NCBI GenBank assembly: GCA_050008535.1
Contig: JBEKML010000001.1
Coordinates: 2,246 to 66,245, forward strand
Direction of reading: 5' to 3'
DNA from: Minisyncoccia bacterium
GTDB lineage: Bacteria > Patescibacteriota > Minisyncoccia > UBA6257 > 2-01-FULL-56-20
DNA: 64,000 bases
Shown piece by piece: positions 8,004 through 45,090 of this stretch; position 1 is the stretch's first letter, and each line of letters begins with the position of its first letter. The position numbers were made by a program, and so were the translations under genes. Under the pieces are notes generated by a model that was given only the letters and a program-made list of their open reading frames with translations, searched no databases and had not been told where the DNA came from.

Positions 8004-8033
8004 TTCCCCTCGCTGCCTGCTATAATAAAAACA
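8004..8033. promoter_or_regulatory. Compact 30-nt bidirectional promoter region between divergent genes. It reads TATAAT on the + strand and TATTAT on the - strand across the same AT-rich core.
   Basis: ctgctataataaaaacaATG precedes the + gene. On the other strand tattatagcaggcagcgaggggaaATG carries a GAGGGG SD for the - gene. Confidence 0.4.
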
Positions 8034-13407: not shown

Positions 13408-15162
13408 ATGCCGAAAACAGAATCGAAGGCCTCTTTGGACCCCATCCGCCACTCGCTCGCGCACTTGCTCGCAGCGGCGGTTTTGAAAGAATTTCCGGAC
13501 GCGAAGCTTGCTATCGGCCCCACAATAGAGAACGGCTTTTATTATGATTTCCTGCTTCCCCGTTCGCTTTCGCCGGAAGATTTGAAAACTTTTGAGAAAA
13601 CGATGCGGGATCTCGCAAAGAAGGATCTGCCGTTCGTGGGGAAAGAGGTCTCCGCAACCGAAGCGAAAAAGCTCTTCGCCGACCAGCCATTCAAACTGGA
13701 ACTCATCAAGGAATTTTTGGATGCCGGCGAAAAACTGACGGTCTACCACACGGGCGACATCTTCGTGGACCTCTGCCGCGGCGGGCACGTGACGAACACG
13801 AAAGAGATCCCGCTTGACGGGTTCAAGCTTGATAAAATCGCCGGTGCCTACTGGCGTGGCAGCGAAAAGAACCCGATGCTCCAGCGTATTTACGGGCTTG
13901 CGTTCGGAAGCAAAAAAGAGCTTGAAGAATATTTGAAGCTTATCGAGGAGGCGAAGAGACGCGATCACAAAGTGCTCGGCCCGGCGCTTGATCTTTTTAC
14001 CTTCTCGGACCTTGTAGGGCCGGGGCTCCCCCTCTGGACACCGAAGGGGACGCTCATCCGGAATCTGCTTGATGATTTTGTCTGGGAGCTTCGGAAAAAG
14101 CGCGGCTACGTGAAAGTGGAGATCCCCCACATCACCAAAAAAGAACTTTACGAGACGAGCGGCCACTGGGAAAAATTCAAAGATGAGCTCCTGAAGATCG
14201 AAACGCGTGAAGGGCACGTTTTCGCAATGAAGCCGATGAACTGCCCGCATCACACGCAGATCTACGCCCGCAAGCCGTGGAGCTACCGCGAACTTCCGCA
14301 GCGCTACGCAAACACCACCACGTGCTATCGCGACGAACAGACGGGCGAACTCTCCGGCCTCTCGCGCGTACGCGCGTTTGCGCAGGACGACGCCCACGTA
14401 TTCTGCCGCATGATACAGGCAAAAGAAGAATTTCTAAAGATATGGGATATTGTTAACGAATTTTATCCAGTGTTTGGATTCAAACTTCGTGTGCGCCTTT
14501 CCCTGCACGATCCGGCCTACCCTGAAAAATATCTCGGCGATAAAAAAAGTTGGGCGACCGCCGAAAACATTTTGCGCGAGATCGTCACCGAGAAAAAGGT
14601 GGATTGGTTTGAAGGTGTTGGTGAAGCCGCGTTCTACGGCCCGAAACTGGACTTTATGGCGAAGGATGCCCTGGGCCGCGAATGGCAGGTTGCCACCATC
14701 CAGCTTGATATGAACATGCCAGACCGCTTTGACCTTGTCTGCACAAATGAAAACGGAGAAAAAGAGCGTATCGTGATGATCCATGCCGCCATCATGGGTT
14801 CCATTGAGCGGTTTTTATCAATTCTGATAGAACATACGGCCGGTGCCTTCCCCGTCTGGCTTGCGCCCGTGCAGGCGACGGTGCTTCCAGTAAGTGAAAA
14901 ATTCTCGGCATATGGCGAAAAAATCTATAAAGCGCTTCTTGCAGCCGGCATCCGCGCGGAACTTTCTGAGGCGAACGAATCGCTCGGCAAGCGCATCCGT
15001 GCGGCAGAATTGATGAAGGTCCCCTATGTGCTCGTGGTCGGCGAGAAAGAAGAGAAGGACGGTATGGTCGCCGTGCGGAGCCGGAAAGGAGATGAAGGCC
15101 CAGTGGAACTCGCAGAATGGTTGGGAAAGATCCAAAAGGAGATCGCGGCGCGGTCGCTCTAA
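13408..15162 (+). CDS. thrS: Threonyl-tRNA synthetase lacking the N1 (TGS) domain; it begins in the editing domain.
   Basis: RHSLAHLLAAAV (editing-site His pair), class II catalytic core and a C-terminal anticodon-binding domain; 584 aa. Upstream gcaTAGAATgataatattATG looks like a -10 element with a near-leaderless start. Confidence 0.85.
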   Translation: MPKTESKASLDPIRHSLAHLLAAAVLKEFPDAKLAIGPTIENGFYYDFLLPRSLSPEDLKTFEKTMRDLAKKDLPFVGKEVSATEAKKLFADQPFKLELIKEFLDAGEKLTVYHTGDIFVDLCRGGHVTNTKEIPLDGFKLDKIAGAYWRGSEKNPMLQRIYGLAFGSKKELEEYLKLIEEAKRRDHKVLGPALDLFTFSDLVGPGLPLWTPKGTLIRNLLDDFVWELRKKRGYVKVEIPHITKKELYETSGHWEKFKDELLKIETREGHVFAMKPMNCPHHTQIYARKPWSYRELPQRYANTTTCYRDEQTGELSGLSRVRAFAQDDAHVFCRMIQAKEEFLKIWDIVNEFYPVFGFKLRVRLSLHDPAYPEKYLGDKKSWATAENILREIVTEKKVDWFEGVGEAAFYGPKLDFMAKDALGREWQVATIQLDMNMPDRFDLVCTNENGEKERIVMIHAAIMGSIERFLSILIEHTAGAFPVWLAPVQATVLPVSEKFSAYGEKIYKALLAAGIRAELSEANESLGKRIRAAELMKVPYVLVVGEKEEKDGMVAVRSRKGDEGPVELAEWLGKIQKEIAARSL

Positions 15163-16118: not shown

Positions 16119-17499
16119 GCGTCGCAGGTTGCGCGCGACCCTTCAATATGCCCATCGCCTTGCCGATCAAGAATTGCAAGCTCGCCGTCTTTCCCTTCCT
16201 GTAGTCCGCTACGGCGGCGTGGTTCTCCGCAATAACTGCCAAGACCACCGCTTCAATCTCCCCCGCGTCGGAGGCAACACCGATGTTCTCGTTCCCCGCG
16301 ATATCTTCGGGATCGTCGCCCGTTGCGAACATCTTGGTGAGCATGTCCTTCGCCTGGCGCGTCGTTATTTTTTTCTCTTCGATGAGCCCCGCAAGATGCG
16401 CCAGATGTTCGGGATTCACTTTCAGGTCCGCGAACGATACGCCCTCCTGATTCATAAGTCCGCGAAGGTCGCTCGTTAAATAATGATAGAGCGTCGTAAC
16501 ACCCGCATTAGGAAGGCGCTCCTTTAATTCGGACGTTGCCGCCTCAAAATAGTTCGCCATTTCCGGCTCAGCTATCAACATTTCCACCTGCTTTGCGTCC
16601 AAGCCATACTCTTTCGCGAAGCGCGTGCGCTTTCCTGCCGGAAGCTCCGGAAGCGTCGCGCGCAACCGCTCCGGATCAAAGATTTTCGTCTCAAAAGGCG
16701 GGATGTCCGGTTCGGGGAAATAACGGTAGTCGTGCGCTTCTTCTTTTGAGCGCTGTAGAACGGTCTTCTGCTTCGCCTCGTCCCATCCGCGCGTCTCTTG
16801 CGTTATTTTCTCGCCGCGCGTGAGCGCTTCCTCCTGCCGCTTCAATTCGTACTGCACCGCATCGTGCACCGCTCTGAACGAATTGATGTTTTTGAGCTCT
16901 ATCTTCGTGCCCATATCCAAACTCACGTTCGCTTCAATGCGCATCTCTCCTTTTTCCATGTCGGCGTCCGAAACGCCCAAAAAACGCAGGATGAGCTGGA
17001 ACTCCCGCGCAAACGCCGTCGTATCGTCCGCGCTCCTCAAGTCCGGCTCCGTCACCAGCTCCATGAGCGGCACGCCTGAACGGTTATAGTCCACGAGCGA
17101 TGCTCCGCCCGCGTGCACAAGTGTCCCCGTATCTTCTTCAAGGTGCACGCGCCGGATGCGTACGCCGTTCAAGGCACCGCCCGTAACGAGCGGCTGGTCA
17201 TACTGCGAAATTTGATAGCCCTTTGGAAGGTCGGGGTAAAAATAATTCTTGCGGTCAAATTTCGTGATCTCGTTCACGCGACCGCCGAGCGCGAGCCCAA
17301 CCTTGATCACGTCTTCAATCGCCTGTTTATTGGGGACGGGCAGCGTCCCCGGATGGCCAAGGCACACCGGGCAGACATTTACGTTTGGATGCTTTTCCTC
17401 CGGATCGTTCAACGAATCACAAAACATCTTCGTCCGCGTTTTGAGCTCTGCGTGAATTTCCAGGCCGATCGTAGGGCTATATTCTTTCGCCGCTGCCAT
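16087..17499 (-). CDS. gatB: Asp/Glu-tRNA(Asn/Gln) amidotransferase subunit B.
   Basis: TIGLEIHAEL ... CPVCLGHPGTLP motifs; 470 aa. gatC and gatA are encoded separately at 46.9-48.7 kb. Confidence 0.9.
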   Translation of the reverse strand: MAAAKEYSPTIGLEIHAELKTRTKMFCDSLNDPEEKHPNVNVCPVCLGHPGTLPVPNKQAIEDVIKVGLALGGRVNEITKFDRKNYFYPDLPKGYQISQYDQPLVTGGALNGVRIRRVHLEEDTGTLVHAGGASLVDYNRSGVPLMELVTEPDLRSADDTTAFAREFQLILRFLGVSDADMEKGEMRIEANVSLDMGTKIELKNINSFRAVHDAVQYELKRQEEALTRGEKITQETRGWDEAKQKTVLQRSKEEAHDYRYFPEPDIPPFETKIFDPERLRATLPELPAGKRTRFAKEYGLDAKQVEMLIAEPEMANYFEAATSELKERLPNAGVTTLYHYLTSDLRGLMNQEGVSFADLKVNPEHLAHLAGLIEEKKITTRQAKDMLTKMFATGDDPEDIAGNENIGVASDAGEIEAVVLAVIAENHAAVADYRKGKTASLQFLIGKAMGILKGRAQPATLKELFERHLK

Positions 17500-17540
17500 A
17501 GGTTTGATTATTTGCGATTTGGGACATAAAGTAAAGGCAA

Positions 17541-18866
17541 ATGCCCAAGAACATTCGCACGCCGAAGGTGGTCGCAGATCCTATTTACGGCATCGTGGAT
17601 ATCCGGCCGGTGCTTCCGATGGTGGAAACCCCGGCGTTCCAGGCGCTCGGCGACAAGCGGCAGCTCGGTATGGCGTATCTTACCTTCCCGTCGGCCACGC
17701 ACACGCGGAAGGCGCATTCCTTGGGCGCCTATCATGCGACGCGCGAACTTGCCGACCGGTGGATCAAATTAGGATTCATCAAAAAGCGCGAGGGCGATGC
17801 GCTTGCGGGCTACGCGCTCTACCACGACATCGGCCATCCGGCGTTTTCCCACGTGACGGAACCCTTTTGCGCGATGCCTGCGGGGATCCGCGGCATGAGC
17901 GCAAATAGCGCCTTGAGTTTGGCCGTTATTCGGGAGCACAAAAAAGAGATCAAGGCCTGTGGTATTGATTTTGCGCTGCTTTGCGCGCTCGCGAGCCACG
18001 AACATCCGCTCCATGTGGCCGTAAGCGACAAAAATCTCGGCACGGAAAAATTGGATTATTTGGAGCGCGACGGAGCGGTCACCATTTTGAGCCGTCCGCC
18101 CGGCCTCTCCTATCTCCGCGAACACATCTATTTCATAAACGGCAAACTGGCCGCGGACGAAAAAGTGGTTGACAACGCCATTGAGGCGCAGAATTTCTAC
18201 CTCAAAATGTACAAAAACGTATATCTGCGGAAGGCGTCGGTCATCGCCCAGCGCATGCTCCAGAAAATGGTCCATCACCTTATCCTCGCGGGAGAGATCG
18301 CGCCGGACGATCTCTTACAACTCACCGATTCGGAGCTCTTGGGCGTCATACGCCTTTCAAAAGATCATCTTGTGAACACGCTGTATGATCTTTTAAAACG
18401 CCGCAATCTTTTCCGCGAGGCGATCGTTGTAAGGCCGGAGCGATTCATGGATATTGAGACGAAAACGGAAAAAGGGGTGGCTATCTTCGGCGCCGCAGAA
18501 CGCACGATGGCACGGCTTATAAACTCCCCGACATTCCGGGTTAAAAACCAAAGCGGTCTTGAAGCGGCGGAGGCGGAAATCGCAAAGATCGCCGGAATTC
18601 CGCCCAAATTCGTCCTCATCGCCCCCATAGCGACGCCGGAACGCTTTGATGCCCGTGATATCATGATCTATCAAGACAACGCAAAAAAATTGGTGTCCCT
18701 GCGGAAGCAATATCCGGCGCATTTCAAGAATCTCGAAGAGATCGCGCAAAGCTATCTCGCTTTCCGCGTCTGCACCACGGAAAAATATCGAAAAGCGCTT
18801 TCCGCCCCGCGCACCGCGCGGAAAATATTCAAATTTTTGACGGCTCACGCCACTTCCGCCTGGTAG
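17541..18866 (+). CDS. HD-domain phosphohydrolase, dGTPase/dNTP triphosphohydrolase-like.
   Basis: HTRKAHSLGAYH ... YHDIGHPAFSH ... DKLDYLERD (HD motif plus downstream Asp); 441 aa. Confidence 0.65.
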   Translation: MPKNIRTPKVVADPIYGIVDIRPVLPMVETPAFQALGDKRQLGMAYLTFPSATHTRKAHSLGAYHATRELADRWIKLGFIKKREGDALAGYALYHDIGHPAFSHVTEPFCAMPAGIRGMSANSALSLAVIREHKKEIKACGIDFALLCALASHEHPLHVAVSDKNLGTEKLDYLERDGAVTILSRPPGLSYLREHIYFINGKLAADEKVVDNAIEAQNFYLKMYKNVYLRKASVIAQRMLQKMVHHLILAGEIAPDDLLQLTDSELLGVIRLSKDHLVNTLYDLLKRRNLFREAIVVRPERFMDIETKTEKGVAIFGAAERTMARLINSPTFRVKNQSGLEAAEAEIAKIAGIPPKFVLIAPIATPERFDARDIMIYQDNAKKLVSLRKQYPAHFKNLEEIAQSYLAFRVCTTEKYRKALSAPRTARKIFKFLTAHATSAW

Positions 18867-25173: not shown

Positions 25174-28100
25174 TTATTCCTTAGCGGCAAGGGTGGTCTT
25201 TTCTGCATCAGCTTCAAGTTCATGGAGCACCTCGCGGCCCGATTCCCTATCCCCCGCAGGGATGAGACGGCCGATGATCACGTTTTCTTTGAGCCCGCGG
25301 AGTTTGTCCACTTTTGCCTCAATTGCGGCCTTCACGAGCACGCGCGCGGTATCCTGGAACGATGCCGCAGAAAGGAAGCTCTCAGCCGAAAGCGCGATGC
25401 GCGTGATCCCAAGGAGCACCTCGTCCGCTTTCGCAGGCTGCCCGCCCTGTTTTTTGATCTCGCGGTTCACCTCCAAAAACTTCGCCTTCTCGACGATCTC
25501 GCCCATCACAAAGTCCGGTGCATCGCCCCCGTCGCGGATCTTCACGCGCGAGAACATCTGCCGCACGATCATTTCAATGTGTTTATTGTTGATCGAGGCG
25601 CCCTCCGAGAGATAGATCTTTTGCACTTCGTTCACGATATAACGGGCCACCGCAAGCGCGCCCCTGTGCTCGTATAACTCATGGATATCCAGGTTCCCCT
25701 CGGAAAGCAGGTCGCCCTTCCGGATCTTGTCCCCCGCTTTCGCATAAAGCACGGTGCTGCGCGGGACGGCGATCTCCTGGGCCTTTGTTTTCTTGTTCTC
25801 GGAAATAAGACGGAGCACTTTCTGGGAACCTCTTTCCTCCACTTTCTCCACCGATCCATCAAAAGGCGCGAGCACGGCGCGGCCCTTCGGCGAGCGCATC
25901 TCGAAAATTTCTTCCACGCGCGGCAAACCGTGCGTAATGTCCGCGCCCGCCACGCCTCCCGCGTGGAACGTGCGCATCGTAAGCTGCGTTCCCGGTTCCC
26001 CGATGGACTGCGCCGCAAGCACTCCTGCCGCAGCGCCGATCTTCACCGGTTCGTTTACGCCAAGATCATATCCGTAACACTTGGCGCAAATACCGTAAAA
26101 TGTCCTGCAGGTGATGGGCGACCGCACGGTAACCGCATCCAGCTTGGATTGTTCGATAAGTTCCGCCGCCGCTTTGTCTATGATCTCTCCGGCCCGCGCA
26201 ACAACTTTGTGCCCGATCCGGATATCATCAAGCGCCGCGCGGGAGAACAAACGGGAAGAAAAGCTCTGGTTGAATTCCTTGCCGTCGGCGCGCAAAATCT
26301 CGATCCCCTCTTTCGCCCTGCAATCTTCTTCGCGGACCGTGAGGTCCTGGGCCACATCCACCAAGCGCCGCGTCAGGTAGCCGGCCTGCGCCGTCTTCAA
26401 AGCGGTGTCGGTGGTTCCTTTCCGCGCGCCGTGCGTAGAAATGAAGTATTCCAAAACCGAGAGCCCTTCTTTAAGCGACGACCGCACGGGGAGCTCGATG
26501 GTTTCTCCTTTCGGGTTCTGCACGAGCCCTTTCATGCCCATCATCTGGATCGGCTGGGACCATGAACCGCGCGAGCCGGAATCCACCATCTGATAGATAG
26601 CATTGTCCACCGACAAAACGACCGAGACGAGCTTCGCAAGCTCGCCCTTCGCCCTGTCCCACACACTGATTACGCGCGCCTTGCGCTCAGAGGACGTAAG
26701 AAGCCCCTCGCGGTATTGTTCCCGTATCAAACCCACCTCTTCGTCGGCCTTCCGCATGATCTCGCCTTTTTCGGTAGGAATAATAAGGTCGGCCATTGCC
26801 CATGTGATGCCCGAGACCGTTGCCATCTCAAAGCCAAGCAGTTTCACGCCGTCCAAAATCTCGCGCGCCGTATCGAGCCCGTGCACGTCAAGGATCTTCT
26901 CGATGATCTTTTTGAGTTTTTTGCTTGTCACCGTCTCGTTCACGAACTCAACTGTCCCGTGAAGTACTTCATTGAAGATCAAGCGGCCGAGCGTGGTATC
27001 GATGCCCTTCACGCGGATCGCCGAATGGAGCGTGACCACGTTATTTTCGTAGGCAAGAAGCGCCTCTTCGACGCCGAGCATCGGTTTTGCGGCATCCCCT
27101 TTCGAGGACGGGCGGGTGAGATAATAAACGCCGAGCACCATATCTTTTGTGGGAGCGGCAATAAGCTCGCCGGTTGCGGGCTTCAAAAGCCCCTTCCCTG
27201 CCGCCATGATCTCTACGGCTTCCTTTTGCGCAAAATCGGAAAGCGGAAGATGAACCGCCATCTGGTCGCCGTCAAAGTCGGCATTGAACGCGGAACAGAC
27301 GAGCGCGGGGATCTTTATCGCAAGCCCCTCAACAAGAAGCGGCTTGAAGGCCTGCACGGAGAGCCGGTGCAGGGTCGGCGCGCGGTTCAAAAGCACGCGT
27401 TTGCCCTTAATGATCTCTTCCAGAATTCCCAACACTTCCGGCGTATGTTCTTCAATATAGCGCGACGCGCTCCGGATGTTGTGCGCAAGGCCGCGCTTGA
27501 TGATCTCGCCAATCACGAACGGGCGGAAAAGCTCCAGCGCCATCCGCTTCGGCAAACCACATTCGTCAATTTTTAAATTGGGACCCACGACAATGACCGA
27601 CCGGCCGGAATAATCCACGCGCTTCCCGAGCAAGTTCTGGCGGAAACGGCCCTGCTTCCCTTTCAACATGTCGGCCAGGGAACGCAAAGGACGCCGCTGC
27701 GCCGAGAGCTGCTGGGTGCCGAAGCGGGCGGAATTATCAATTAGGGCGTCCACCGCTTCTTGAAGCATGCGCTTCTCGTTGCGGATAATGACGTCCGGCG
27801 CCTTGATCTCCAGGAGCTTTTTCAAGCGGTTGTTGCGGTTGATCACGCGGCGGTAAAGGTCGTTCAGGTCGGAAGTTGCGTACCGTCCGCCGTCCAGGGC
27901 CACCATGGGCCGAAGGTCCGGCGGGAGGACCGGAAGCACCGTCATCACCATCCATTCCGGACGGCTGCCGTTCCGGATCATTGATTTGAGCATCTTCAGG
28001 CGCCGCAGGAGCTTGCTTTGCGCAAGAGGGTCCTTTGCGTTTTCCAGTTGCGCCTCAACGCCTTGCACTTCCTTCCGAAGGTCCAATTTTTCCAAAATTT

Positions 28101-31100
28101 GTTTTACGGCCTCGGCGCCGCTCCCCGCCTTGAAAATACTCCCGAACCTCCGCGAGAGCGAGAAATATTCGTTCTCCGAAAGGATCTGGCCAACGTGAAG
28201 ATTTTCCAAATATTCTTTCGTCGTGTCGGCGGCCTCCAAGATCTCTCCTTTTACCATCTTATCCTTATTGCCGACGGTCTTCAGCTTGCCCTTGAGCTCG
28301 CGCTCAAGGTCCGCAAGCGCAACTTTGCGGTTTTCCTCTTTTATCTCCGTGATGATGTAGGCCGAGTAATAAATGACGCGCTCAAGCTTCTGCGAAGAAA
28401 CGTCAAGGGCGAGCGCAAGGCGCGAAGGGATGCTCTTCAAGAACCAGATATGCGAGACAGGAGCGGCAAGCGCGATGTGGCCGATGCGCTCGCGCCGCAC
28501 CGCCGCGCGCGTGACCTCCACGCCGCACTTATCGCAGATCACGCCCTTGTAGCGGATCCGGCGATACTTGCCGCAATAGCACTCATAGTCCTTCGTAGGG
28601 CCGAAGATGCGTTCGGAGAACAAGCCGTCCTTCTCGGGGCGCTGCGTCCGATAATTGATGGTCTCCGGTTTTATCACCTCCCCATGGGACCATTTCAAAA
28701 TATCTTCCGACGACGCGACGCTGATCTTCAATGCGGAGAAATCATCTTTACGATCGGTTTCTGTCTCATACAGCGGCTGGATATTGAATCCAAGCGATTT
28801 AAGTTCGTTCACAAGCACATTGAAGGACGCCGGAATGTTCGGCTCCTTGATCTGCTCGCTGCGTATGATGGACTCGTACGCCGCTGCGCGGCCCAGGACG
28901 TCGTCGGACTTGATCGTGAGCATTTCCTGGAGCGTGTGGCGCGCGCCGTAGCCTTCAAGGGCCCACACCTCCATTTCGCCGAACCGTTGGCCGCCGAACT
29001 GCGCCTTCCCACCCAGCGGCTGCTGGGTGATCAAAGAGTACGGACCGATGGAACGCATGTGCGCCTTGTCTTCCACAAGATGGTTCAGCTTCATCATGTA
29101 CACCTGCCCCACGGTCACCCGGCTTTCAAAAGGTTCGCCGGTGCGGCCGTCAAAGAGCTTCACTTTGCCGTCCTCGGGCAGTCCCGCCTTCGCGAGTTCC
29201 TCGCGGATCTCCGCTTCCGTCGCCGAGTCCAGTCCCGGCGTGATCGCGCGGTATCCCAACTTTGAAGCCGCCCACCCCAAGTGGGTCTCCAGGATCTGGC
29301 CGAGGTTCATGCGCGAGATGACGCCCAACGGGTTCAAAACGATGTCCACCGGCGTGCCGTCCTCCAAATAGGGCATGTCTTCCGCCGCGCGCACCTGCGA
29401 GATGACGCCCTTGTTCCCGTGGCGCCCGGCAAGCTTGTCGCCCGACTGGACCTTCCGGAGTTCCGCGATCTCCACCTGAATGCGGCGGATGATCCCCGGC
29501 TCCAGCTTGTCGCCGCGCTCCCGGTCAAAGATCTTCACGTTCACCACGCGGCCCAGTTTCCCGTGCGGAAGGATAAGCGAGGTATCTTTCACGTCCCGCG
29601 CCTTCTCGCCGAAGATCGCACGGAGCAGGCGCTCTTCCGACGTCAGTTCCGATTCGCCCTTCGGCGAAATTTTCCCGACCAAAATGTCGCCGGCTTTGAC
29701 CTCGGCGCCGATGCGGATGATCCCCTCCTCGTCAAGATTTTTCAATTTGTCTTCCGAAACATTGGGGATATCGTAGGTGGTGACTTCCGGCCCTAATTTC
29801 GTGTCGCGTACGTCGCAATCATAATTATCAATATGGATGGAGGTGAAAAGGTCGTCGCGGACCACGCGTTCGGAAAGAACGATGGCATCCTCAAAATTCG
29901 CGCCTTCCCACGAGACGAAGGCAACAAGAAGATTCTGGCCCAGGGCGAGCACTCCGTGATCGATCGACGGACCGTCAGCGAGAATCTCTCCTTTTGCGAC
30001 CGCCTGCCCCGTAACGACGAGCGGTTTCTGCGAAATGCACGTGAATTGGTTGGAGCGTTTGAACTTTTCAAGAACGTAGTTTTTGGTCACCCTGCCATAC
30101 TTCACCTTAAGATGGTTCCCGTCGGCCTCAAGCACGGTCCCTTTGTCCTCGGCGACGATCACATAGCCCGAATCAAGCGCCACCCGCTCTTCCTCCCCCG
30201 TCGAAACATAGGGGGCGTCGGGCTTCACGGACACCACGGCCTGCCGTTGCATGTTCGAACCCATGAGCGCGCGGTTTGCATCGTCGTGCTGGAGGAAGGG
30301 AATAAGCGCGGTCGCAACCGAGATGAACTCGTTCGGAGCGACGTCGATAAGGTCTATTTCTTCCGGCGTGCAGGTTCCCGGCTCGCCTTTAATGCGCGCT
30401 TCCACGATCGGTCCTTTCAAGCGGTCTCCCTCGCGCGGGGTACCGGCATGGGTGATCTTGTATTTTTCTTCTTCCGAAGCATCGAACCAAACGATCTCGT
30501 TCGTAACGCGGCCGTCTTTTACCTTTGCATACGGCGCCTCCAAAAATCCAAAATCGTTGATGCGCGTAAAGCTTGCAAGATAATTGATAAGGCCTATGTT
30601 CGATCCCTCCGGCGTTTGGATCGGGCAGATACGGCCGTAGTGCGAGCGATGGACGTCGCGCACCTCAAAGCTCGCGCGTTCGCGCGTGAGGCCGCCGGGG
30701 CCGAGCGCCGAAATCCTCCGCTTATGCTCCAATTCCGCAAGCGGGTTCACCTGGTCCATGAACTGCGAAAGCTGCGAAGAAGCGAAAAACTCCTTGATGA
30801 CCGCGGCGATCGGACGGAAGTTCACGAGCTGCGACGGCATCAAATGATCTTTATCTTCCGTGGACATCCGGTCCTGGATGATCCTCCGCAAGCGCGCGAG
30901 CCCGATCCGGAGGCGGCCCTGCAAAAGCTCTCCCACGGTCTTCAGGCGGCGGTTGCCCAAGTGGTCGATGTCATCCTCTTCGGCCTCGGCATTGTTATTC
31001 AAAGAGATGATCTCTTTTACGATCCCAATGAGGTCCTCGGCATCCAAAAGTTTGTTGTTCTTCTTGCGATCCAGATCCAGGCGCTGGTTCATCTTGTAGC

Positions 31101-31905
31101 GGCCGACCTCCGAGAGGTCATAGCGATCAGGGCGATGGAACATCGCGTCAATGAGGCTTTTTGCCGTTTCCGCGCCCGCAGGGTCGCCCGGCCGCAAGCG
31201 GCGGTAGATCTCGATATACGACTCGGTCGTGTCTTTTGCGACGTCTTTTTTGAACGTCGCTTCGATGAATTTCACCGGGCCATTATCCATCTTCTCGAAT
31301 GCGGCCCCGATCTTTTCGTTGTCCAACCCGAATATACGAAGGATGTCCGTCACCGGCACTTTCCTCCGGCGGTCGATCTTCACGCCGATTTCGCCGTTCA
31401 CGTCGGTTTCGAATTCAAGCCAGGCGCCGCGCGAAGGAATGATCTTCGCGCCGAAAAGCTGCCGGCCGCGATAGGGCACCGCCGTGAAATACACGCCGGC
31501 GGAACGCACGAGCTGTGAAACCACCACGCGCTCAACGCCGTTCACGATGAACGTTCCGCGGCTTGTCATGATCGGGAAATCGCCGAAGTACACCTCTTGC
31601 TCTTCCGTCCTCCCCGTCCGCTTGTTCACCAGTTTCAAAGTGCACCGCAAGGGTGCTTCATACGTCGCTTCTTTGTACCGCGCCGTCGCCTCGTCATATT
31701 TCGGTTCGTCGAAACGATAGTTGGTAAAGGAAAGTTCGAACTCCTTGCCCGTGTGATCGCGGACCGGCGAAATTTCCACAAGGAGCTCCTGCAGCCCTTT
31801 ACCCAAAAACCACTGATACGACTTCAGTTGCGCTTCATTCAAATTGAATGGCGCAATAAGGGATTTCGATTTCGAAAAGTCTTTTATTTTGGAAAATTTT
31901 GCCAT
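25174..31905 (-). CDS. rpoBC: DNA-directed RNA polymerase beta-beta' fusion (rpoB and rpoC in one continuous frame). The start is taken at ATG 31905 ([10 protein letters not shown]...).
   Basis: N-terminal half is RpoB (rifampicin-region and GEMEVWALE-like motifs). The RpoB C-terminal end ...[24 protein letters not shown] runs without a stop into the RpoC N-terminus ...[40 protein letters not shown] (zinc finger), through NADFDGDQM to the C-terminus. Total 2243 aa. Confidence 0.85.
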
Positions 31906-31995
31906 CAAAATAAAGTTTTTTATAATGAAAAAGTTTGCTCCCCTCCAACGCACAAAAAACGGCTCCCTTCTCTTTTTTCAAGAAGTCCGTTCTAA

Positions 31996-35740: not shown

Positions 35741-35861
35741 TGTCGGCACATCCTACTTTCCCCGCAGGCGAACCCGCAAGTATCATCGGATCGGGGCGCT
35801 TTCACTTCTCTGTTCGGAATGGGAAGAGGTGGGACACGCCCGAATAAAGCACCGACATCAA
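35738..35861 (-). rRNA. rrf: 5S ribosomal RNA.
   Basis: Reverse complement contains CCCATTCCGAACAGAGAAGTGAAAGCGCC... (5S loop B/helix III consensus), and the terminal helix I pairs gatgtcggtgc with gcaccgacatc. About 124 nt. Confidence 0.85.
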
Positions 35862-36033: not shown

Positions 36034-36054
36034 AGTCAGCATTGGGATGGTTGG
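36034..36054. repeat. 3' arm of the 23S rRNA processing stem. It is the exact reverse complement of 40083-40103, about 4 kb away.
   Basis: gtcagcattgggatggttggc at 36034 matches gccaaccatcccaatgctgac at 40083 as a 21-bp perfect long-range inverted repeat bracketing the 23S gene. This is the classic RNase III processing helix. Confidence 0.8.
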
Positions 36055-36157
36055 CGGGATTATTAGTACTCCTTGGCTGAAGCCATTGCTGGCCTTACAC
36101 CTAGAGCCTATCAACGTGGTAGTCTTCCACGAAATCACGCACACCTAATCTTGGGGT

Positions 36158-36191
<34 letters not shown>

Positions 36192-36333
36192 CTTCCATAC
36201 ATAGCTACCCGGCAGTTCACCTGGTGGCAAAGCCGGTAGACCAGAGGTATGTTCAGCCCAGTCCTCTCGTACTAAGGCCAACTCCCCTCAAGTGTTAAAC
36301 GCCTGCAGCAGATAGAGACCGACCTGTCTCACG

Positions 36334-37086
36334 CAATATATTATTTCACGCCATTGCTGGCGGTTTGGACTATACCACCATCTCGATCCACACCGAGATG
36401 ACCGACGTTTTATGGAATTTTTCTTCCATCCAATCCCTTAGATTGAGTCTCTACGGGGTCAATGTATATAGCTTTCGCTTCTTTGAATAATTCAATTCTC
36501 TGAAACGATCTACGGTCTTCATCAGCACGTGAAAATCGCCTTGATTTTTCACATTCGCTTTTTTATCCAAGACTTCCAGCATAAGCATCGCTTGATCCTT
36601 TTTCATAATGAGGTACGGCTGAACTATATCAAGAAATGCGCGGATAGCGCCTTCTCTCGCAATAGTATATTCAACCATGCCGTCATTTCTCTCTCGGAAA
36701 TAACCGAGGTTGACGAAGGAACAAACTTGCTTGAACTTTTTCAGTTCTTTTTTGGATTGGAACAACACAATATACGGTGCTACTTGAAATCCGTACCGAT
36801 ATTCGGCATTAGGTTTCAATCGCACGTAAATGCTTCCATCTCCATCTAGAAATCCTGCAATATATGCTTTTTGTGCTGACGAAAGACTTTTCATACACGA
36901 CTTCCCTCGGTATTATCCTATAATCACCCACTCATGCAAAATATCTTTTAATATATTTTTAATGAGCATTGTGGTATGTCCACAGGTCATGGACATTAGG
37001 ACTTCACCGATATGAGTCGATTTATGCACCCTAACGTTGCCGCTAGGGGCCGCCGTGTTCGATTATCGTTAAGGGTTCTTTGGTTG
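36334..37086 (-). mobile_element. Group I intron in 23S rRNA at the E. coli L2593-equivalent (I-CreI-type) site, carrying a LAGLIDADG homing endonuclease ORF.
   Basis: The flanking exons rejoin to GGGTTCAGACCGT|CGTGAGACAG, matching E. coli GGGTTTAGAACGTCGTGAGACAG exactly. Exon 1 ends in U, the intron ends in G, and the ORF lies in a peripheral loop. Confidence 0.75.
36451..36894 (-). CDS. LAGLIDADG homing endonuclease (single-motif, I-CreI-like) encoded in the 23S group I intron.
   Basis: MKSLSSAQKAYIAGFLDGDGSIYVRLKPN... has a single LAGLIDADG motif (IAGFLDGDGSI) near the N-terminus; 147 aa. Confidence 0.85.
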   Translation of the reverse strand: MKSLSSAQKAYIAGFLDGDGSIYVRLKPNAEYRYGFQVAPYIVLFQSKKELKKFKQVCSFVNLGYFRERNDGMVEYTIAREGAIRAFLDIVQPYLIMKKDQAMLMLEVLDKKANVKNQGDFHVLMKTVDRFRELNYSKKRKLYTLTP

Positions 37087-38493
37087 ACGGTCTGAACCCA
37101 GCTCACGTGCCACTTTAATTGGCGAACAGCCAAACGCTTGGGAGCTTCTTCACCCCCGCGCTGTGGCGAGCCGACATCGAGGTGCCGAGCGAAGTCGTCG
37201 ATAGGAACTCTCGGACTTCACCAGCCTGTTATCCCCGGAGTAGCTTTTATCCGGTGTCTCCGGCCTTTCTATCAAGAGTTTAATGAATCGTAAGAAACAA
37301 TAAACGTAGCCGTCGGGTCACTAACTTCTGCTTTCGCACCTGCTCGACTTGTAGGTCTCGCAGTCAAGCCGGCTTTTGCGTTTGCACGTCCTGCCCGATT
37401 TCCATCCGGGCTAAGCCGACCTTAATAAACTCCTCCGTTACTTTTTTGGAGGAAAACGCCCCATTTAAACTGCCTACCAAGCACTGTCTCAGCCGGGTTT
37501 ATGCTTGCGCACTTCCCAGCCGGTTAGTCTTTAAAATCTTAAAGATGGCTGTTTCATTGTCGGATCCACCGCCCCCGAGAGGGCGGCTTCAAATCCTCAC
37601 CACTACGCTACGCATCAAGATTCTAAAGACAATACCAAGCTGCAGTAAAGCTTCCGGGGTCTTTTCGTCCCGCTGCAGGTATCCCGCGTCTTCACGGGAA
37701 TCGCATTTTCACCGAGCTTGCCTCTGAGACAGTTCTCCAGTCGTTACGAGCACCGCACCTTGCGGCACGGCACCCCCAACCTTGACCTTCTCGCATCGGT
37801 CAGGCGTCACCCCCTATACATCCTCTTGCGAGTTAGCAGGGAGCTGTGTTTTTGGTAAACAGTCGCCAGAGAGACTTTCGCTGCGGCCCCTCAATAAAGA
37901 AGGGCAGGCCATATTGCTAACTTACGGCCGCTTTTTTGCCGAGTTCCTTAGAGGCAAATCACTCGTTCCCCTTGGGCTTCTCGCCCTATCTACCAGTGTC
38001 GGTTTACGGTACGGATCCTCTGTAACGTTACCGTCGTGCTTTTCTCGGAAGGCTCTTCACGCGTGTTAGTGAGGTAAATTCCTCACCTTCCGCCAATCCT
38101 CGCTTGAACTTCGGACCAGCGATACCAAACCAATAAGGCATACGCACTTATTTCCTTCGCACACGACGGATAATCACAAAGGAGGGCTGGAATATTAACC
38201 AGCATTCCATCAGCTGCGGCTTTCGCCATCGCCTTAGGACCGCCTAACCCGTGGTTGATTGCCAGTGCCACGGAAACCTTGGATTTTCGGGGTTCCAATT
38301 TCTCATTGGGATTGTGGTTACTCATGCCAACATTTTCTCTTCCGGCCGCTCCAAACGCCCTCGCGGGTCGATCTTCGCTGCAGACCGGAATGCTCTCCTA
38401 CCGCGCATGGACTTCATAGAGGAGGCCAAGCGAACATATGCTCGCCTCGCACTCCGATAATTATTGCTATTCGTGTTGACCGCCCAGGAGGGG

Positions 38494-38570
38494 TGGTCGG
38501 GCCGGTGGGATTTGAACCCACGACTTCCGAGGCCCGAGCTCGGCGCGCTACCAGGCTGCGCCACGGCCCG
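38494..38570 (-). tRNA. tRNA-Pro(CGG) embedded inside the 23S helix-45 IVS, with CCA encoded (38494-38496).
   Basis: CGGGCCG-TG-GCGC-AGCCTGGTA-GCGC-G-CCGAG-CTCGGGC-CTCGG-AAGTC-GTGGG-TTCAAAT-CCCAC-CGGCCCG-A-CCA. The D-arm GGCGCAGCCTGGTAGCGC is identical to E. coli tRNA-Pro, and G72/A73 plus G35G36 are the Pro identity set. Confidence 0.65.
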
Positions 38571-38703
38571 CCACACGAATGGCGGAGGGGCACGGGGATT
38601 CCTCCCCGCGCCAAGCCAAAACTACCGTACATGGCCTCCCAACAGCACGCTTGCGCATGCCAAGGCGCCCCTCCATGAAACAAAACAAAGAGCTACTAAG
38701 AGA

Positions 38704-38791
38704 TGGTGGAGCGGGGGAGAGTCGAACTCCCCTATGGCCCCGTAGTAATCGCGCACCGAAATGCAATGCGCGCACACACAGGCCGCGCCCC
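38704..38791 (-). ncRNA. tRNA-like element inside the IVS. It has an acceptor stem with a G3:U70 wobble, a T-arm and encoded CCA, but no recognisable D or anticodon arms.
   Basis: TGGGGCGCGG...[hairpin-rich 50 nt]...ATAG-GGGAG-TTCGACT-CTCCC-CCGCTCC-A-CCA. The 5' GGGGCGC pairs with the 3' CCGCTCC (6 of 7 pairs, G3:U70). It resembles a tRNA-Ala/tmRNA-type acceptor/T-arm minihelix. Confidence 0.3.
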
Positions 38792-39540
38792 ACAACTCTT
38801 CACGAAACAAACTACTCCTCTATGAAGTCCACGCACCCGTATCTTCGGTACCATGCTTAGCCCCGGTACATTTTCGGCGCCACCACCCATCGAATAGTGA
38901 GTTGTTACACACTCTTTAAAGGATGGCTACCTCTAAGCCAACCTCCTATCTGTCTATGGGTGATGACTACCTTTCACACTTAGCATGGATTTGGGGACCT
39001 TAGATAACGGTCTGGGCTCTTCCCCTCGCGACCACGGAGCTTAGCCCCCGCAGTCTGACTAGGGTAATACCACCACGGTATTCGGAGTTTGATTGACTCG
39101 TCGGCCTTTCGGCCTTTACGAATCATCCAGTGCTCTACCCCCGTGGCTACCTTACCCCGCTAGTCCTAAAACTATTTCGGAGAGAACCAGCTATTACCAA
39201 ATTCGATTAGCTTTTCACTCCTTACCTCAGCTCATCCGAAGGTGTTGAACAACCCACCGGTTCGGGCCTCCCCTTCGATTTCTCGAAGGTTCACCCTGGC
39301 CAAGGCAAGCTCATCTGGCTTCGGGTCTACCTTGTGATGCCATAGTTCGCCCTATTAAGACTCGCTTTCGCTGTGCCTCCGCGCTTTCGCGCTTAGACAA
39401 GCAACACAAGATAAGTCGTTGGCTCATTCTTCAATAGGCACATTGTTGCACTCGTCCGCGGATTGCTCCGCGATCGTTCGTGCTTCAATTCCTTGTAGAC
39501 AAATGGTTTCAGGTTCTATTTCAACGGCCTCACCGGCCTG

Positions 39541-39577
<37 letters not shown>

Positions 39578-40082
39578 ATCTAGAAAAGTATTTAGCCTTC
39601 AAGTTGAAAAACTAAGGAGATCATTAGTTTTCGCCTACGGGGCTATCACCCGCTCTGGCGCCGTCTTTCCAGGCGGCTTCGGCTAACCAACGATTTTTTT
39701 ACTCCTCCACCTCGATAGCCAATAGCCACCCGGGAAAAACCCGAGTCGCTATTAGCTAAAAAGAGCGTCTTCCTCTTATTACCCCAAGGTCCGATCTTGC
39801 GATCAGAACCTTAGTTTGGGCTCTTCCCTGTTCTCTCGCCGATACTAAGGGAATAAACTTTTGTTCTTTGTTCCTCTGGCTACTGAAATGTTTTACTTCG
39901 CCAAGTACGCGAATCGGCTTGCGCCGAAACGATTGCGGGTTACGCAATCAGGTTTCCCCATTCGGAAATCCCCGGATCACAGGTTGCTACGCACCTCCCC
40001 GAGGCGTATCGTCGCTACGCCACGTCCTTCATCGCCTTTTCTAGTCAAGGCATCCACCATTCGCCCTTAATGCCAACCATCC

Positions 40083-40103
40083 CAATGCTGACTTACTAAC
40101 TGC
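40083..40103. repeat. 5' arm of the 23S processing stem (partner of 36034-36054).
   Basis: Exact 21-nt reverse complement of 36034-36054, located immediately upstream of the 23S 5' end on the transcribed strand. Confidence 0.8.
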
Positions 40104-40501
40104 TCTGCCTGCCAAGAGAAATTGCGCGCTTTGTGAAAATGCGATTGTCGATAGCGCGTGTCCGGCACAATACCAGACATAATAATGGCGCAGAGCTTCT
40201 TATACCATACTCCGACTCTACAATTCGGAGCCGCCCAATGACTACCAAGGCGGACGATGTTAAATTGCGTTCCATGCACGAATCCCGGGAAAAAAATCAG
40301 CCGCACACGGCGGCCGCCCCAGTGCGCAAAAACGCGCGGTTCAGCCGCAATGCTTTTGGAGGATTATTTTCGCGTTCATTCGTACGAGGTCTATTATACG
40401 CGGCGGCAAAATAGTGTCAAGTGGGCGAAAATCCCACACTAGACCGATAAAGGAAAATCCTATATGGTCATTAGAGAAATCTTCGGTTCCAAGGAGGGAC
40501 C

Positions 40502-40873
40502 ATGTCCATGTTTGTTCGCGTAGGCGCGGTTTTGCTTCTCGCCCTATCCCTTTGCGCCGTCGGGCAAGAGGCTCCCAAAAGCGGCGAAACGACGCCGTGC
40601 GCACCGAAGACGCCGGGCTACATAGAGTTTGCCTGCGCAGATATCGTCGTGCCGCCGCCGCAGAAAAACGGGAGTGGAGCGGCCGTGAGTAATGACGAGC
40701 AAAAAGCGCTGTCCAGGATACTGGCCATCAACCAGAGGACCATCCTCATGGCTCAGTACCTGACGGATAAAGAAAAATGGCACGCGAATGTGCCGAGGCT
40801 CGTTCTCGAAACAAAGAAACTGGCCGATAAGCTTTGCGAGCAGTTCAAGTGCGAAGCGAAGGCGGCCAAGTGA
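40502..40873 (+). CDS. Small secreted hypothetical protein (signal peptide plus 4 Cys).
   Basis: MSMFVRVGAVLLLALSLCAVGQEAP... is a signal peptide; an AAGGAGGG SD lies 6 nt upstream; 123 aa. Confidence 0.5.
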   Translation: MSMFVRVGAVLLLALSLCAVGQEAPKSGETTPCAPKTPGYIEFACADIVVPPPQKNGSGAAVSNDEQKALSRILAINQRTILMAQYLTDKEKWHANVPRLVLETKKLADKLCEQFKCEAKAAK

Positions 40874-40890
40874 AAGCACGGAGGCATTCA

Positions 40891-40938
40891 GGGGCGGCGC
40901 TCATCGTCGCCCCGATCCTTTAGTTTGAGTTTTTTTTG
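40891..40938 (+). terminator. Rho-independent terminator with a GC hairpin and a T8 tract.
   Basis: ggggcggcg-ctcat-cgtcgcccc is followed by gatcctttagtttgagttttttttg. Confidence 0.75.
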
Positions 40939-40966
40939 AAACAGGGTACTATTCAAGCACGGTAAA

Positions 40967-41037
40967 CGGGCCGTCGTATAGTGGTAGTATACACGCTTCG
41001 GGTGCGTGCGGTCTGGGTTCGATTCCCAGCGGCCCGA
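40967..41037 (+). tRNA. tRNA-Pro(CGG), free-standing copy, with no encoded CCA.
   Basis: Acceptor CGGGCCG/CGGCCCG is identical to the IVS copy, with discriminator A. Anticodon stem-loop CACGC-TTCGGGT-GCGTG, T-arm CTGGG-TTCGATT-CCCAG. The body sequence is divergent from the IVS copy. Confidence 0.7.
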
Positions 41038-41045
41038 CAAGAGAA

Positions 41046-41111
41046 CATAAAGCAGGTACGGTTTGAAACGAGTACTAAGAAGGGCTCGTTTCAAACCGTA
41101 CCTGCTTTATG
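41046..41111. repeat. Conserved-loop hairpin, copy 5. A 27-bp perfect stem carries the loop TACTAAGAAGGG. It lies 8 nt after the tRNA-Pro 3' end and ahead of a convergent gene.
   Basis: cataaagcaggtacggtttgaaacgag pairs with ctcgtttcaaaccgtacctgctttatg. Confidence 0.85.
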
Positions 41112-43899: not shown

Positions 43900-45090
43900 T
43901 TAGCGCACTGTCGCACCGAATTCCTCCTTTACCTTTTCTTCAAGCGCATGATGCATACTATCTACCTCTTCATTGGTAAGCGTCCGATCAAGATGGCGAT
44001 AGACGATGCGGAAAGTGTAGCTTGTTTTGCCAGCGCCAAATTTCGCTTCGTCGGCGTATTCGTCAAGCTGTTTCATTTCTTCTATATATTCATCGCCAAT
44101 TACCTCGCGGGTAATTTCATAAAACCGATTCACATTGAACACGTTCTTATCAACGATGAATGAAATGTCGCGCGTAACCGGAGGATATTTGCTCACAGAT
44201 TGATAAAGGCGATCAAGATCGGCAAGTTGTTTTATAACGCGCGGATCCGTTGAGCGGAACAATCGTATGTCCGGCAACTTCAATTTGATCATCGCGAGGC
44301 GGTCAACGCCAAAACCAAACGCCCAGCCATTATAGACCGCGGGGTCAAAGCCGAGATTGCGAATAACATTAGGATGCACGATGCCGGCGCCCAAAATTTC
44401 CACCCACTGATCACCCCACGCAATGTTCATTTCCAGGCTCGGATCGGTGTAGGGGAAGTGATCCACAACAAACTTATATTTTACATCTTCCCCATACAGT
44501 GAACGCGCGACTTCAAGAAGGATCGCCTCAAGGTCCGGCTGATCAAGCGTTTTCAGATCTTTGCGGATGATGAAAAGGCCATCAATTTGGTGGGGAATAT
44601 TCGTGTGCTGCCAGTCGATCTCGTCGCGGCGATAGGTCTTGCCATAACTTAAGGCACCCACAGAACCATGCTTTTCCAATTTTTCCTTCACTTCGGGAAT
44701 TTCAAGATAATATTTCCACATCAAGCTTGTATGGGGGCGGAGAATGTGTTCCTTATCGACAAAATACGTGTCGCTCCGCGAGCGCGCCGGGTGATCTTTG
44801 GGAAAATTAAAGAGATCAAAAACAACGACTGGCGAGATAACTTCGGGGGTTTCAATAAGATCGAAATTCTTTAAGCTCGGGAGCTCAATAAGCCGCTCAA
44901 CGACCGTTTTAATGGGACTGCCCGCCGTGCGCGTAAGGTCCGGTAGAGCAAGATAGCGCCGCAGGCGATCAGCCTCGACGTCGCCGCGCGTACCGAGTTT
45001 TTTCAAAATTTCATTTTGCTCATCAGGCGGAACCCGATATTCTTTCCGCTTCAAGTGCGACGCCGCATACATTGGTTCCATGCTGCTCAT
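43900..45090 (-). CDS. pheS: Monomeric phenylalanyl-tRNA synthetase: a PheS-type class II catalytic core fused to a C-terminal FDX-ACB anticodon-binding domain, the mitochondrial FARS2-like architecture.
   Basis: Catalytic motifs FPKDHPARSRSDTYFV and GFGVDRLAM. The C-terminal RDISFIVDKNV...FRIVYRHLDRTLTNEEV...FGATVR matches the FDX-ACB domain normally at the PheT C-terminus. No pheT lies adjacent. Confidence 0.7.
   Translation of the reverse strand: MSSMEPMYAASHLKRKEYRVPPDEQNEILKKLGTRGDVEADRLRRYLALPDLTRTAGSPIKTVVERLIELPSLKNFDLIETPEVISPVVVFDLFNFPKDHPARSRSDTYFVDKEHILRPHTSLMWKYYLEIPEVKEKLEKHGSVGALSYGKTYRRDEIDWQHTNIPHQIDGLFIIRKDLKTLDQPDLEAILLEVARSLYGEDVKYKFVVDHFPYTDPSLEMNIAWGDQWVEILGAGIVHPNVIRNLGFDPAVYNGWAFGFGVDRLAMIKLKLPDIRLFRSTDPRVIKQLADLDRLYQSVSKYPPVTRDISFIVDKNVFNVNRFYEITREVIGDEYIEEMKQLDEYADEAKFGAGKTSYTFRIVYRHLDRTLTNEEVDSMHHALEEKVKEEFGATVR

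Follow-up and report, generated by a model that had tools for sequence, protein, structure and literature searches.

Why should the 23S rRNA gene of a small bacterium hold a complete tRNA gene inside one of its helices? The question arises from a 64,000-nt stretch of contig JBEKML010000001.1 (positions 2,246 to 66,245; assembly GCA_050008535.1), hereafter the window, in which a preliminary description of the DNA had placed a tRNA-Pro(CGG) gene within an intervening sequence (IVS) in helix 45 (H45) of a minus-strand 23S. The host is a Minisyncoccia bacterium of the candidate phyla radiation (CPR), and its 23S-5S unit is unlinked from 16S. Judged from the sequences compared here, the feature is real and recurs in two lineages with different tRNAs; its range is narrow and its function putative. 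We favor the reading, to which we assign a probability of roughly 0.6, that the IVS in the 23S of these CPR bacteria (Minisyncoccia/Paceibacterota) works as an internal transcribed spacer with tRNA-type cargo, such that the rRNA gene probably doubles as a small operon for tRNAs.

When the region 38250-38990 is aligned to the Rfam model LSU_rRNA_bacteria, the insert forms one unbroken block between model positions 1218 and 1219, which is the loop of the hairpin 1205-1226, helix 45. The blastn alignment to Escherichia coli 23S breaks between approximately positions 1168 and 1185, so that both methods locate the insert in helix 45 of a 23S gene, as had been claimed. Read on the rRNA strand from 38830 to 38409, it starts with GGACTTCATAGAGGAG and ends with CTCCTCTATGAAGTCC, and these ends pair perfectly over 16 bp, enclosing 390 nt where the short H45 hairpin would stand, which bears out the original observation. 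The fold predicted for the whole insert has a free energy of -222 kcal/mol (z = -7.6 against shuffled sequences). Its site in the H45 loop, the inverted-repeat stem that extends the helix and its patchy occurrence among close relatives are the hallmarks of a helix-45 IVS. A group I intron was also considered, and the Rfam model Intron_gpI has no match in 38250-38990 at E values up to 10.

These are the same features that characterize the helix-45 IVSs of Salmonella, Campylobacter, Leptospira and Coxiella, which likewise sit in the H45 loop, extend the helix with inverted repeats and occur sporadically among close relatives (PMC4990558; PMC2801512; PMC2672173). The size is near that of the 428-nt IVS of Coxiella burnetii (PMC4990558), and a two-piece 23S would be expected as in such IVSs. 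Within the same phylum, the insert resembles the non-intron insertions called 23IS2 and 23IS4 in CPR 23S genes (Tsurumaki et al. 2024, PMC11270868) in having a kind of site that those authors identify with established IVS sites, no intron signature and no open reading frame (ORF); those insertions are mostly shorter than 200 bp and uncharacterized, with tRNA content unmentioned. The H45 insert is of the same type as the 23IS4 insertions.

The content of the insert is richer than had been described. The tRNA-Pro(CGG) gene is there; the idea that it is the only tRNA module is not upheld, since three tRNA-shaped modules with NCCA ends (M1, M2 and M3) are present. M3 is the canonical tRNA-Pro(CGG). 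It is called by ARAGORN and scores 65.2 bits against the Rfam tRNA model (RF00005), for which the gathering score is 29, so that both the identification as a canonical tRNA-Pro with G72 and A73 and the proposed covariance-model check on the tRNA-like segment came out in its favor. It has C1:G72, A73, anticodon CGG, G37 and an encoded CCA, and it lies on the same strand as the 23S. In bacteria, the identity set recognized by prolyl-tRNA synthetase (ProRS) consists of G72, A73, G35 and G36, and all four are present in M3 in both its sequence and its Rfam alignment. The D-arm, GCGCAGCCTGGTAGCGC, is that of an E. coli tRNA-Pro, and a further statement of the preliminary description is thereby confirmed by sequence comparison.

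The host has another tRNA-Pro(CGG) gene, upstream of the 23S. M3 is 70% identical to it with 5 gaps, versus 76% identical to an E. coli tRNA-Pro without gaps; M3 also has a G+C content of 73%, versus 57-65% for the host tRNAs, and a long D-loop. Given these identities and the difference in G+C content, M3 is not a recent duplicate of the host tRNA-Pro and looks acquired and foreign. It also differs from its neighbors in that CCA is not encoded by the four other tRNA genes of the window. The motif composed of a T-arm, a 7-nt acceptor strand and NCCA occurs twice in the 64 kb, both times inside the IVS.

M1 has an acceptor stem GGGGCG/CGCUCC with G3:U70, A73 and CCA, together with a canonical T-arm (GGGAG-UUCGACU-CUCCC). 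A single long arm stands where the D and anticodon arms would be, and its predicted fold has z = -3.3. In this architecture it resembles the tRNA-like domain of transfer-messenger RNA (tmRNA), sharing with it the alanine-type acceptor (G3:U70, A73), the T-arm and CCA. Unlike tmRNA, it lacks a D-loop analogue, pseudoknots and a tag frame, and it is embedded in an rRNA. The spacing between the acceptor strands is 50-66 nt versus 326-328 in the model, leaving no tmRNA mRNA-like domain; ARAGORN calls no tmRNA, and the sole short downstream frame, read by eye, ends in ...GHVR, which is not degradation-tag-like. M1 scores 21.4 bits against the permuted tmRNA model (RF04321), and the M1 of the allele on contig L014 scores 26.6 bits against tmRNA, both under the gathering score. 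Jacob et al. (2004, RNA 10:605) reportedly described mRNA-less mitochondrial tmRNAs in jakobids.

Two other identities for M1 were considered and set aside. A two-piece permuted tmRNA came to mind because GGGGCGCC recurs after M1's CCA and because of the 21.4-bit hit; the recurring segment, however, base-pairs with its own 3' end, giving M2, and a plausible tag frame is lacking. A copy of a host tRNA-Ala was rejected because the acceptor stem of a relative's tRNA-Ala(UGC) differs. M2 itself is predicted to form a four-way junction: its acceptor-like stem (GGAGGGGC/GCCCCUCC) has 8 bp, GCAA and GGAA loops cap its arms, and its 3' end is a single-stranded GCCA. Its fold has a free energy of -52.9 kcal/mol (z = -4.0), and none of 200 shuffled sequences is as stable.

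Positions of the features discussed in the text; those without a contig label refer to the window
Feature	Coordinates	Strand	Support or remark
23S rRNA gene	36040..40080	(-)	Rfam LSU; blastn vs E. coli 23S; sarcin-ricin loop
Helix-45 intervening sequence, 422 nt	38409..38830	(-)	Rfam alignment; in L010, L011, L014, L020, L023
Basal stem, 5' arm, GGACUUCAUAGAGGAG	38815..38830	(-)	Same in L004; L030 homologue differs by two compensatory pairs
M1, tRNA-like, 88 nt	38704..38791	(-)	Rfam tmRNA end matches; fold
M2, four-way junction, 95 nt	38580..38674	(-)	Predicted fold
M3, canonical tRNA-Pro(CGG), CCA encoded	38494..38570	(-)	ARAGORN; Rfam tRNA
G+C-rich hairpin just inside the 3' arm of the basal stem	38425..38450	(-)	Predicted folds
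Basal stem, 3' arm, CUCCUCUAUGAAGUCC	38409..38424	(-)	
Probable 23S-5S promoter, TTGACA-16-TATAAT	40393..40420	(-)	12/12 consensus positions
Host tRNA-Pro(CGG), no encoded CCA	40967..41038	(+)	0.9 kb upstream of 23S; kept there in all relatives examined
23S-leader tRNA gene, L004	12543-12618		
23S-leader tRNA genes, L027	10534-10609, 10645-10719		

A locus of this kind could arise as an artefact, either as a chimeric assembly of a tRNA locus with a 23S gene or as a dead 23S pseudogene. Taken alone, the window does look pseudogene-like: its 23S is without 93 nt at 37748 (H69 to H71 and the 3' strand of H68 before them) and without 49 nt at 39599. The 93-nt stretch is present in contigs L010, L011 and L020 and the 49-nt stretch in L010 and L011, and in the relatives H68-H71 is either normal or has an intron there. 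The two gaps are thus a defect of the window's source sequence and not of the organism. A deletion or pseudogene lacking H68-H71 and the universal GGTAGCGAAATTCC...GTAAGTTCCGACC block is ruled out because L010 and L011, which also carry the IVS, contain both missing stretches. As a side effect of this defect, the window 23S by itself mimics a 23S lacking helix 69.

The insert is supported well beyond the window. The window proteins are also encoded on contig Ga0427963_0000021 of the Joint Genome Institute (JGI), our L010, which matches at 100% over the aligned stretches, insert included. The ENA contig L011, from a separate dataset, has the insert and differs from the window by 3 mismatches and 1 gap over a 1,854-nt aligned segment of 23S (99.7%). 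A metagenome scan with the stem sequence found the insert on three more JGI contigs, L014, L020 and L023, which come from other samples; the same pattern returned seven unrelated protein-coding loci (L015-L019, L021 and L024), which were disregarded. Altogether, the insert is carried by at least five contigs from at least three datasets, and misassembly, the possibility by which the initial interpretation stood to fall, is excluded by its presence on these independent contigs. The synteny of the locus is kept in relatives as well, the common order being a gene for a protein like phenylalanyl-tRNA synthetase (PheRS), the CCA-adding enzyme, tRNA-Pro(CGG), 23S with LAGLIDADG insertions, 5S, ftsW, yceG and a fused rpoBC. 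We therefore regard an artefact as extremely improbable.

This conserved gene order yielded ten further lineages for a comparison of helix 45, making 11 lineages with the window species. The comparison had been proposed as a means of learning whether the IVS is present or absent in related 23S genes, and it shows the IVS in some and a plain H45 in others. The plain short hairpin is found in L005, L006, L008, L027-29, L031 and L033; counted by lineage, H45 is plain in six, and in one more the H45 region shown is free of an IVS. L026 has an unrelated A+T-rich insert without a tRNA. In L004, a 16-bp stem identical to that of the window encloses 104 nt and no tRNA. In L030, an 888-kb contig whose CCA enzyme is 83% identical to that of the window, a homologous stem encloses approximately 330 nt with a tRNA cargo of its own: tRNA-Lys(CUU), which scores 67.9 bits. 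Two pairs of the L030 stem are changed on both sides, from G:C to U:A and from A:U to U:A. The G+C-rich hairpin that adjoins the inner end of the basal stem's 3' arm also has a counterpart at the same position in L030, both starting with GCGAGGCG. Since the stem is kept in the clade and carries compensatory changes, the IVS shell is inherited in a small clade and constrained at the RNA level, with a cargo that differs by lineage. The cargo looks young, foreign and subject to turnover.

Encoded CCA ends are found at another rRNA-linked position in the relatives. In L004 and L027, the 23S leader holds CCA-encoding tRNA genes at 100-300 nt before the 23S 5' end; those of L027 are tRNA-Glu(UUC) and tRNA-Gly(GCC), and the L004 orthologue of the Glu gene reads anticodon AUU. 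In the host family, an encoded CCA thus seems to go with embedding in an rRNA transcript.

Within the species, the contigs that carry the insert represent two alleles and one recombinant (L011). The second allele, of the L014/L020 type, is 448 nt long. Between the alleles, M3 has a single change in 77 nt, A57G, at a permissive T-loop position. M2 has four substitutions (about 4%), of which three are pair-preserving (G-C/G-U and A-U/G-U) and one lies in a loop, and the spacers diverge by about 4-5%. In the M1 of the L014/L020 allele, the interior is swapped for unrelated sequence while the acceptor strands and the T-arm are kept. This allele pattern shows signs of constraint on the modules. When L011 and the window are compared with the allele alignment, all of their differences over the 1,854 nt fall inside the IVS, so the insert evolves faster than the flanking rRNA.

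The alleles also raise the prospect that the insert is a mobile cassette, in which tRNA-like ends would serve as recombination sites and the IVS shell as an attachment site for swapped tRNA modules. The interior of M1 is exchanged exactly between the conserved acceptor and T-arm blocks, L011 is recombinant, and the same shell holds different cargo in the window, L004 and L030. A search of GTDB genomes with the M1 3' end returned one match, L025 (CAZMCK010000019.1), a G+C-rich metagenome-assembled genome labelled Dehalococcoidaceae. At 4397-4474 it has, in a non-rRNA context, a 78-nt tRNA-like gene whose acceptor is of the alanine type (G3:U70, A73, CCA) and whose anticodon loop has 8 nt; ARAGORN reports the gene as 'tRNA-???' with anticodon cgtc. 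The last 27 nt of this gene in an unrelated organism are identical to the M1 3' end; the likeness is confined to the T-arm and acceptor. Set against these points, there is no integrase, transposase or other mobility gene in or adjoining the insert, where the only ORF runs on the opposite strand and matches no Pfam family. Viral contigs gave no matches to the M1, M2 or M3 patterns, and phage and plasmid records gave nothing beyond generic tRNA-Pro similarity of 75-80%. A mobile cassette therefore seems improbable to us. No donor of the cargo was identified among the viral contigs, the phage and plasmid records or the GTDB genomes.

How, then, might a tRNA at this position be made? The probable promoter of the 23S-5S unit lies about 310 nt upstream of the 23S and is the sole promoter-like site in 38200-41100; the scan of this interval found none inside the IVS. 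Because the only promoter is upstream of the 23S and M1, M2 and M3 all share the rRNA strand, they most likely arise within pre-23S. In being co-oriented with the rRNA and having no promoter of its own, M3 is like the tRNA-Ile and tRNA-Ala genes of the E. coli 16S-23S spacer, which use the rRNA promoter and are matured from the rRNA precursor, with their supply tied to rRNA synthesis (PMC5179076). The E. coli spacer tRNAs, however, lie between separate rRNA genes, whereas M3 lies within the body of the 23S, flanked 5' by about 1.25 kb of it and 3' by about 1.7 kb, and its release would break the rRNA chain.

In the mechanism that we propose, the 23S-5S unit would be transcribed from the promoter at 40420-40393 and the insert made as part of pre-23S. 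The insert is predicted to fold as a separate domain atop the extended helix 45 that displays M1, M2 and M3 in tandem. RNase P acts on precursors that contain a canonical tRNA, and likewise on tmRNA-like acceptor/T-arm structures. Its cuts would fall on the 5' flank of M3 at least, and probably of M1 too; trimming would take the 3' ends back to the encoded CCA, and the perfect stem, 16 bp or longer, may in addition be cleaved by RNase III. This would yield a mature tRNA-Pro for CCG codons and split the 23S into pieces of about 1.3 and 1.7 kb that the helix-45 stem keeps joined.

Two details of the processing route first envisaged need revision. RNase Z had been named as the 3' nuclease; an encoded CCA is an anti-determinant for RNase Z, and all modules encode CCA, so RNase Z is unlikely and trimming of the 3' ends is the better candidate. 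It is likewise doubtful that the 23S would be fragmented without RNase III. The perfect stem is kept in L004, which has no tRNA, and is compensated in L030, and this suggests that a stem-dependent step persists, whether RNase III cutting or the holding together of the two 23S halves. A bolder version of our reading takes the IVS for a selected, working tRNA cassette: RNase P acting at three modules would free tRNA-Pro(CGG) (tRNA-Lys(CUU) in L030) and two new small RNAs, M1 being an alanine-accepting, mRNA-less, tmRNA-like molecule; fragmentation of the 23S would be driven by tRNA processing and not by RNase III, and the rRNA gene would be an operon for tRNAs and small RNAs. We hold this version to be rather unlikely.

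It is also conceivable that nothing is excised, and that the insert is retained in the mature 50S subunit as a large helix-45 expansion segment from which the tRNA fold is never freed. Helix 45 is a surface helix that tolerates insertions, and the predicted fold of the insert is compact and very stable. Nevertheless, M3 with its C1:G72, A73 and encoded CCA should be well suited to cleavage by RNase P, the interior of the insert changes much more rapidly than the 23S around it, and the characterized H45 IVSs are excised (PMC4990558, PMC2672173). We give this alternative little credence.

The main rival to the spacer reading is that this is an ordinary helix-45 IVS excised by RNase III, with a neutral or selfish passenger as its tRNA-type content: a foreign, decaying array of tRNAs in a tolerant site, whose fragments are degraded or idle. 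Several points weigh against our reading or speak for this one. The tRNA-bearing IVS is sporadic, occurring in one species and L030 among the 11 lineages, next to relatives with a plain H45 and an L004 stem that encloses no tRNA, and the L030 case comes from one assembly. M3 is redundant with a conserved host tRNA-Pro(CGG) and foreign in style (encoded CCA, long D-loop, high G+C content and a likeness to the host copy no greater than to an E. coli tRNA-Pro), and its low divergence between alleles could merely mean recent arrival. CCG is the commonest proline codon here (54% of proline codons), and the relatives that lack the IVS tRNA are equally CCG-rich; no need for M3 is thereby demonstrated, and codon demand was dropped as an explanation. 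M1 is polymorphic and matches the Rfam tmRNA model (RF00023) only at both model ends, with 20.8 bits versus a gathering score of 47, and M2 matches no Rfam family. Besides its tRNA-Lys(CUU), L030 has a tRNA-like element that shows C1:G72, A73 and CCA and whose D and T arms are normal, but in which about 75 nt stand where the anticodon loop belongs, an arrangement that looks like decay. Excision, RNase P cleavage, aminoacylation and fragmentation are all steps that we infer; the 64-kb window contains no gene for RNase P or RNase III, and a search for the RNase III signature was empty, with a small part of each genome covered. Finally, IVSs are viewed as horizontally spread selfish elements (PMC4990558, PMC11270868).

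On the other side, a 65-bit tRNA in a highly transcribed precursor would be a natural substrate for RNase P whether it is useful or not. In M1 and M2 the acceptor stems are still perfect, the NCCA tails are in place and tetraloops cap the arms, and their few substitutions preserve pairing, unlike what free decay would produce. A different intact tRNA stands at the same site in a second lineage, L030. Weighing these points, we consider the passenger explanation unlikely overall, though serious enough to rank as the chief competitor of an internal spacer with tRNA-type cargo.

Helix-45 IVSs that are excised to leave a working, fragmented 23S (PMC4990558, PMC2672173, PMC11270868) and spacer tRNAs of rrn operons that are matured from the rRNA precursor (PMC5179076) are both known; what is new here, and apparently undescribed, is the cargo. 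Known helix-45 IVSs are empty or hold an ORF of the S23p/IVP family or a transposase, whereas this one holds a tRNA gene and two tRNA-shaped modules with CCA ends, so that excision could also, or instead, proceed through RNase P. The preliminary description had called a tRNA gene in such an IVS unusual, and this judgment stands: full-text literature searches turned up no case of a tRNA gene in a bacterial 23S IVS, and the word tRNA is absent throughout the survey of 348 CPR 23S genes (PMC11270868).

In function, the closest parallels are the rrn spacer tRNAs and a case in an organelle. The large-subunit rRNA of Tetrahymena pyriformis mitochondria is said to work as separate fragments (Heinonen et al. 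1987), with its pieces rearranged and, reportedly, no closing stem of the IVS type described. A reference listed in PMC2996981 concerns this discontinuous rRNA, with a tRNA gene between its two parts. Going by that title, the likeness lies in a tRNA gene between the pieces of one large-subunit rRNA; the differences are the organelle and, reportedly, another break site and the rearrangement of the pieces. If the tRNA of the window is released, it would be a bacterial case of 'tRNA punctuation' that breaks an rRNA, hitherto a feature of organelles. It would also mean that CPR rRNA insertions can carry useful cargo besides homing endonucleases, and that the dosage of the major proline tRNA is tied to ribosome synthesis in a genome of less than 1 Mb. 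Pipelines that annotate rRNA and tRNA genes will mishandle such loci, and surveys of CPR rRNA insertions merit rescanning with tRNA models.

The remaining results concern the layout of the locus. Rfam finds 5S at 35741-35856 and a bacterial LSU rRNA on the minus strand, with no 16S within the 64 kb. The 23S is interrupted twice, by the H45 insert and by an insertion that encodes a LAGLIDADG protein. Because of the latter, Rfam misplaces the 3' end of the gene: its whole-window LSU match (37010-40080) stops at 37010, and the actual 3' end is at approximately 36040. The 3' domain lies at 36333-36057 and includes the sarcin-ricin loop at 36260-36273. The blocks aligned by blastn correspond to E. 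coli 23S positions 12-1168, 1185-1854, 1973-2593 and 2593-2888. Our E. coli reference is L003 (NZ_CP033605.1, 4260044-4262946), and positions in E. coli style are approximate; this 23S is presumably unlike that of K-12 in H68 and around position 1990.

The LAGLIDADG-encoding insertion spans 752 nt (36334-37085) at approximately 23S position 2593, and its ORF (36451-36894, minus strand) encodes a 147-aa LAGLIDADG_1 endonuclease (Pfam E = 3e-11). It does not match the Rfam group I intron model. Strain L020 is missing this insertion, which is therefore polymorphic inside the species. Two relatives have an insertion elsewhere in the 23S, in the H69 loop at approximately position 1917. That of L006 (~17330-18330) holds a LAGLIDADG ORF and a group I intron recognized by Rfam, and the 899-kb contig of L004 stops within its insertion (~14990-15002).

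Among the neighboring genes, the CCA-adding enzyme is encoded 2.3 kb upstream, and its homologues, which are 100%, 83% and 70% identical, are labelled Minisyncoccia bacterium, Candidatus Paceibacterota and Patescibacteria group. The fused rpoBC is a single ORF of 2,259 aa (25174-31953, minus strand) with all RpoB (Rpb2_1-7) and RpoC (Rpb1_1-5) domains, and it is likewise fused in L008 (2,252 aa). The PheRS-like protein (43900-45090, minus strand) is a single chain of 396 aa that combines the PheS catalytic core with an FDX-ACB anticodon-binding domain, an architecture of the mitochondrial type; in NCBIfam it scores 231 bits against SrmL and 213 bits against pheS_mito, both under the cut-off. 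At the corresponding position, the relative L031 (630-3593) has canonical pheS (330 aa) and pheT (655 aa). In another relative, L005, an RVT_1 reverse transcriptase and an adjoining bAvd-like gene (7292-8293 and 6902-7123) lie just upstream of the PheRS-like gene, a pair that is the signature of a diversity-generating retroelement.

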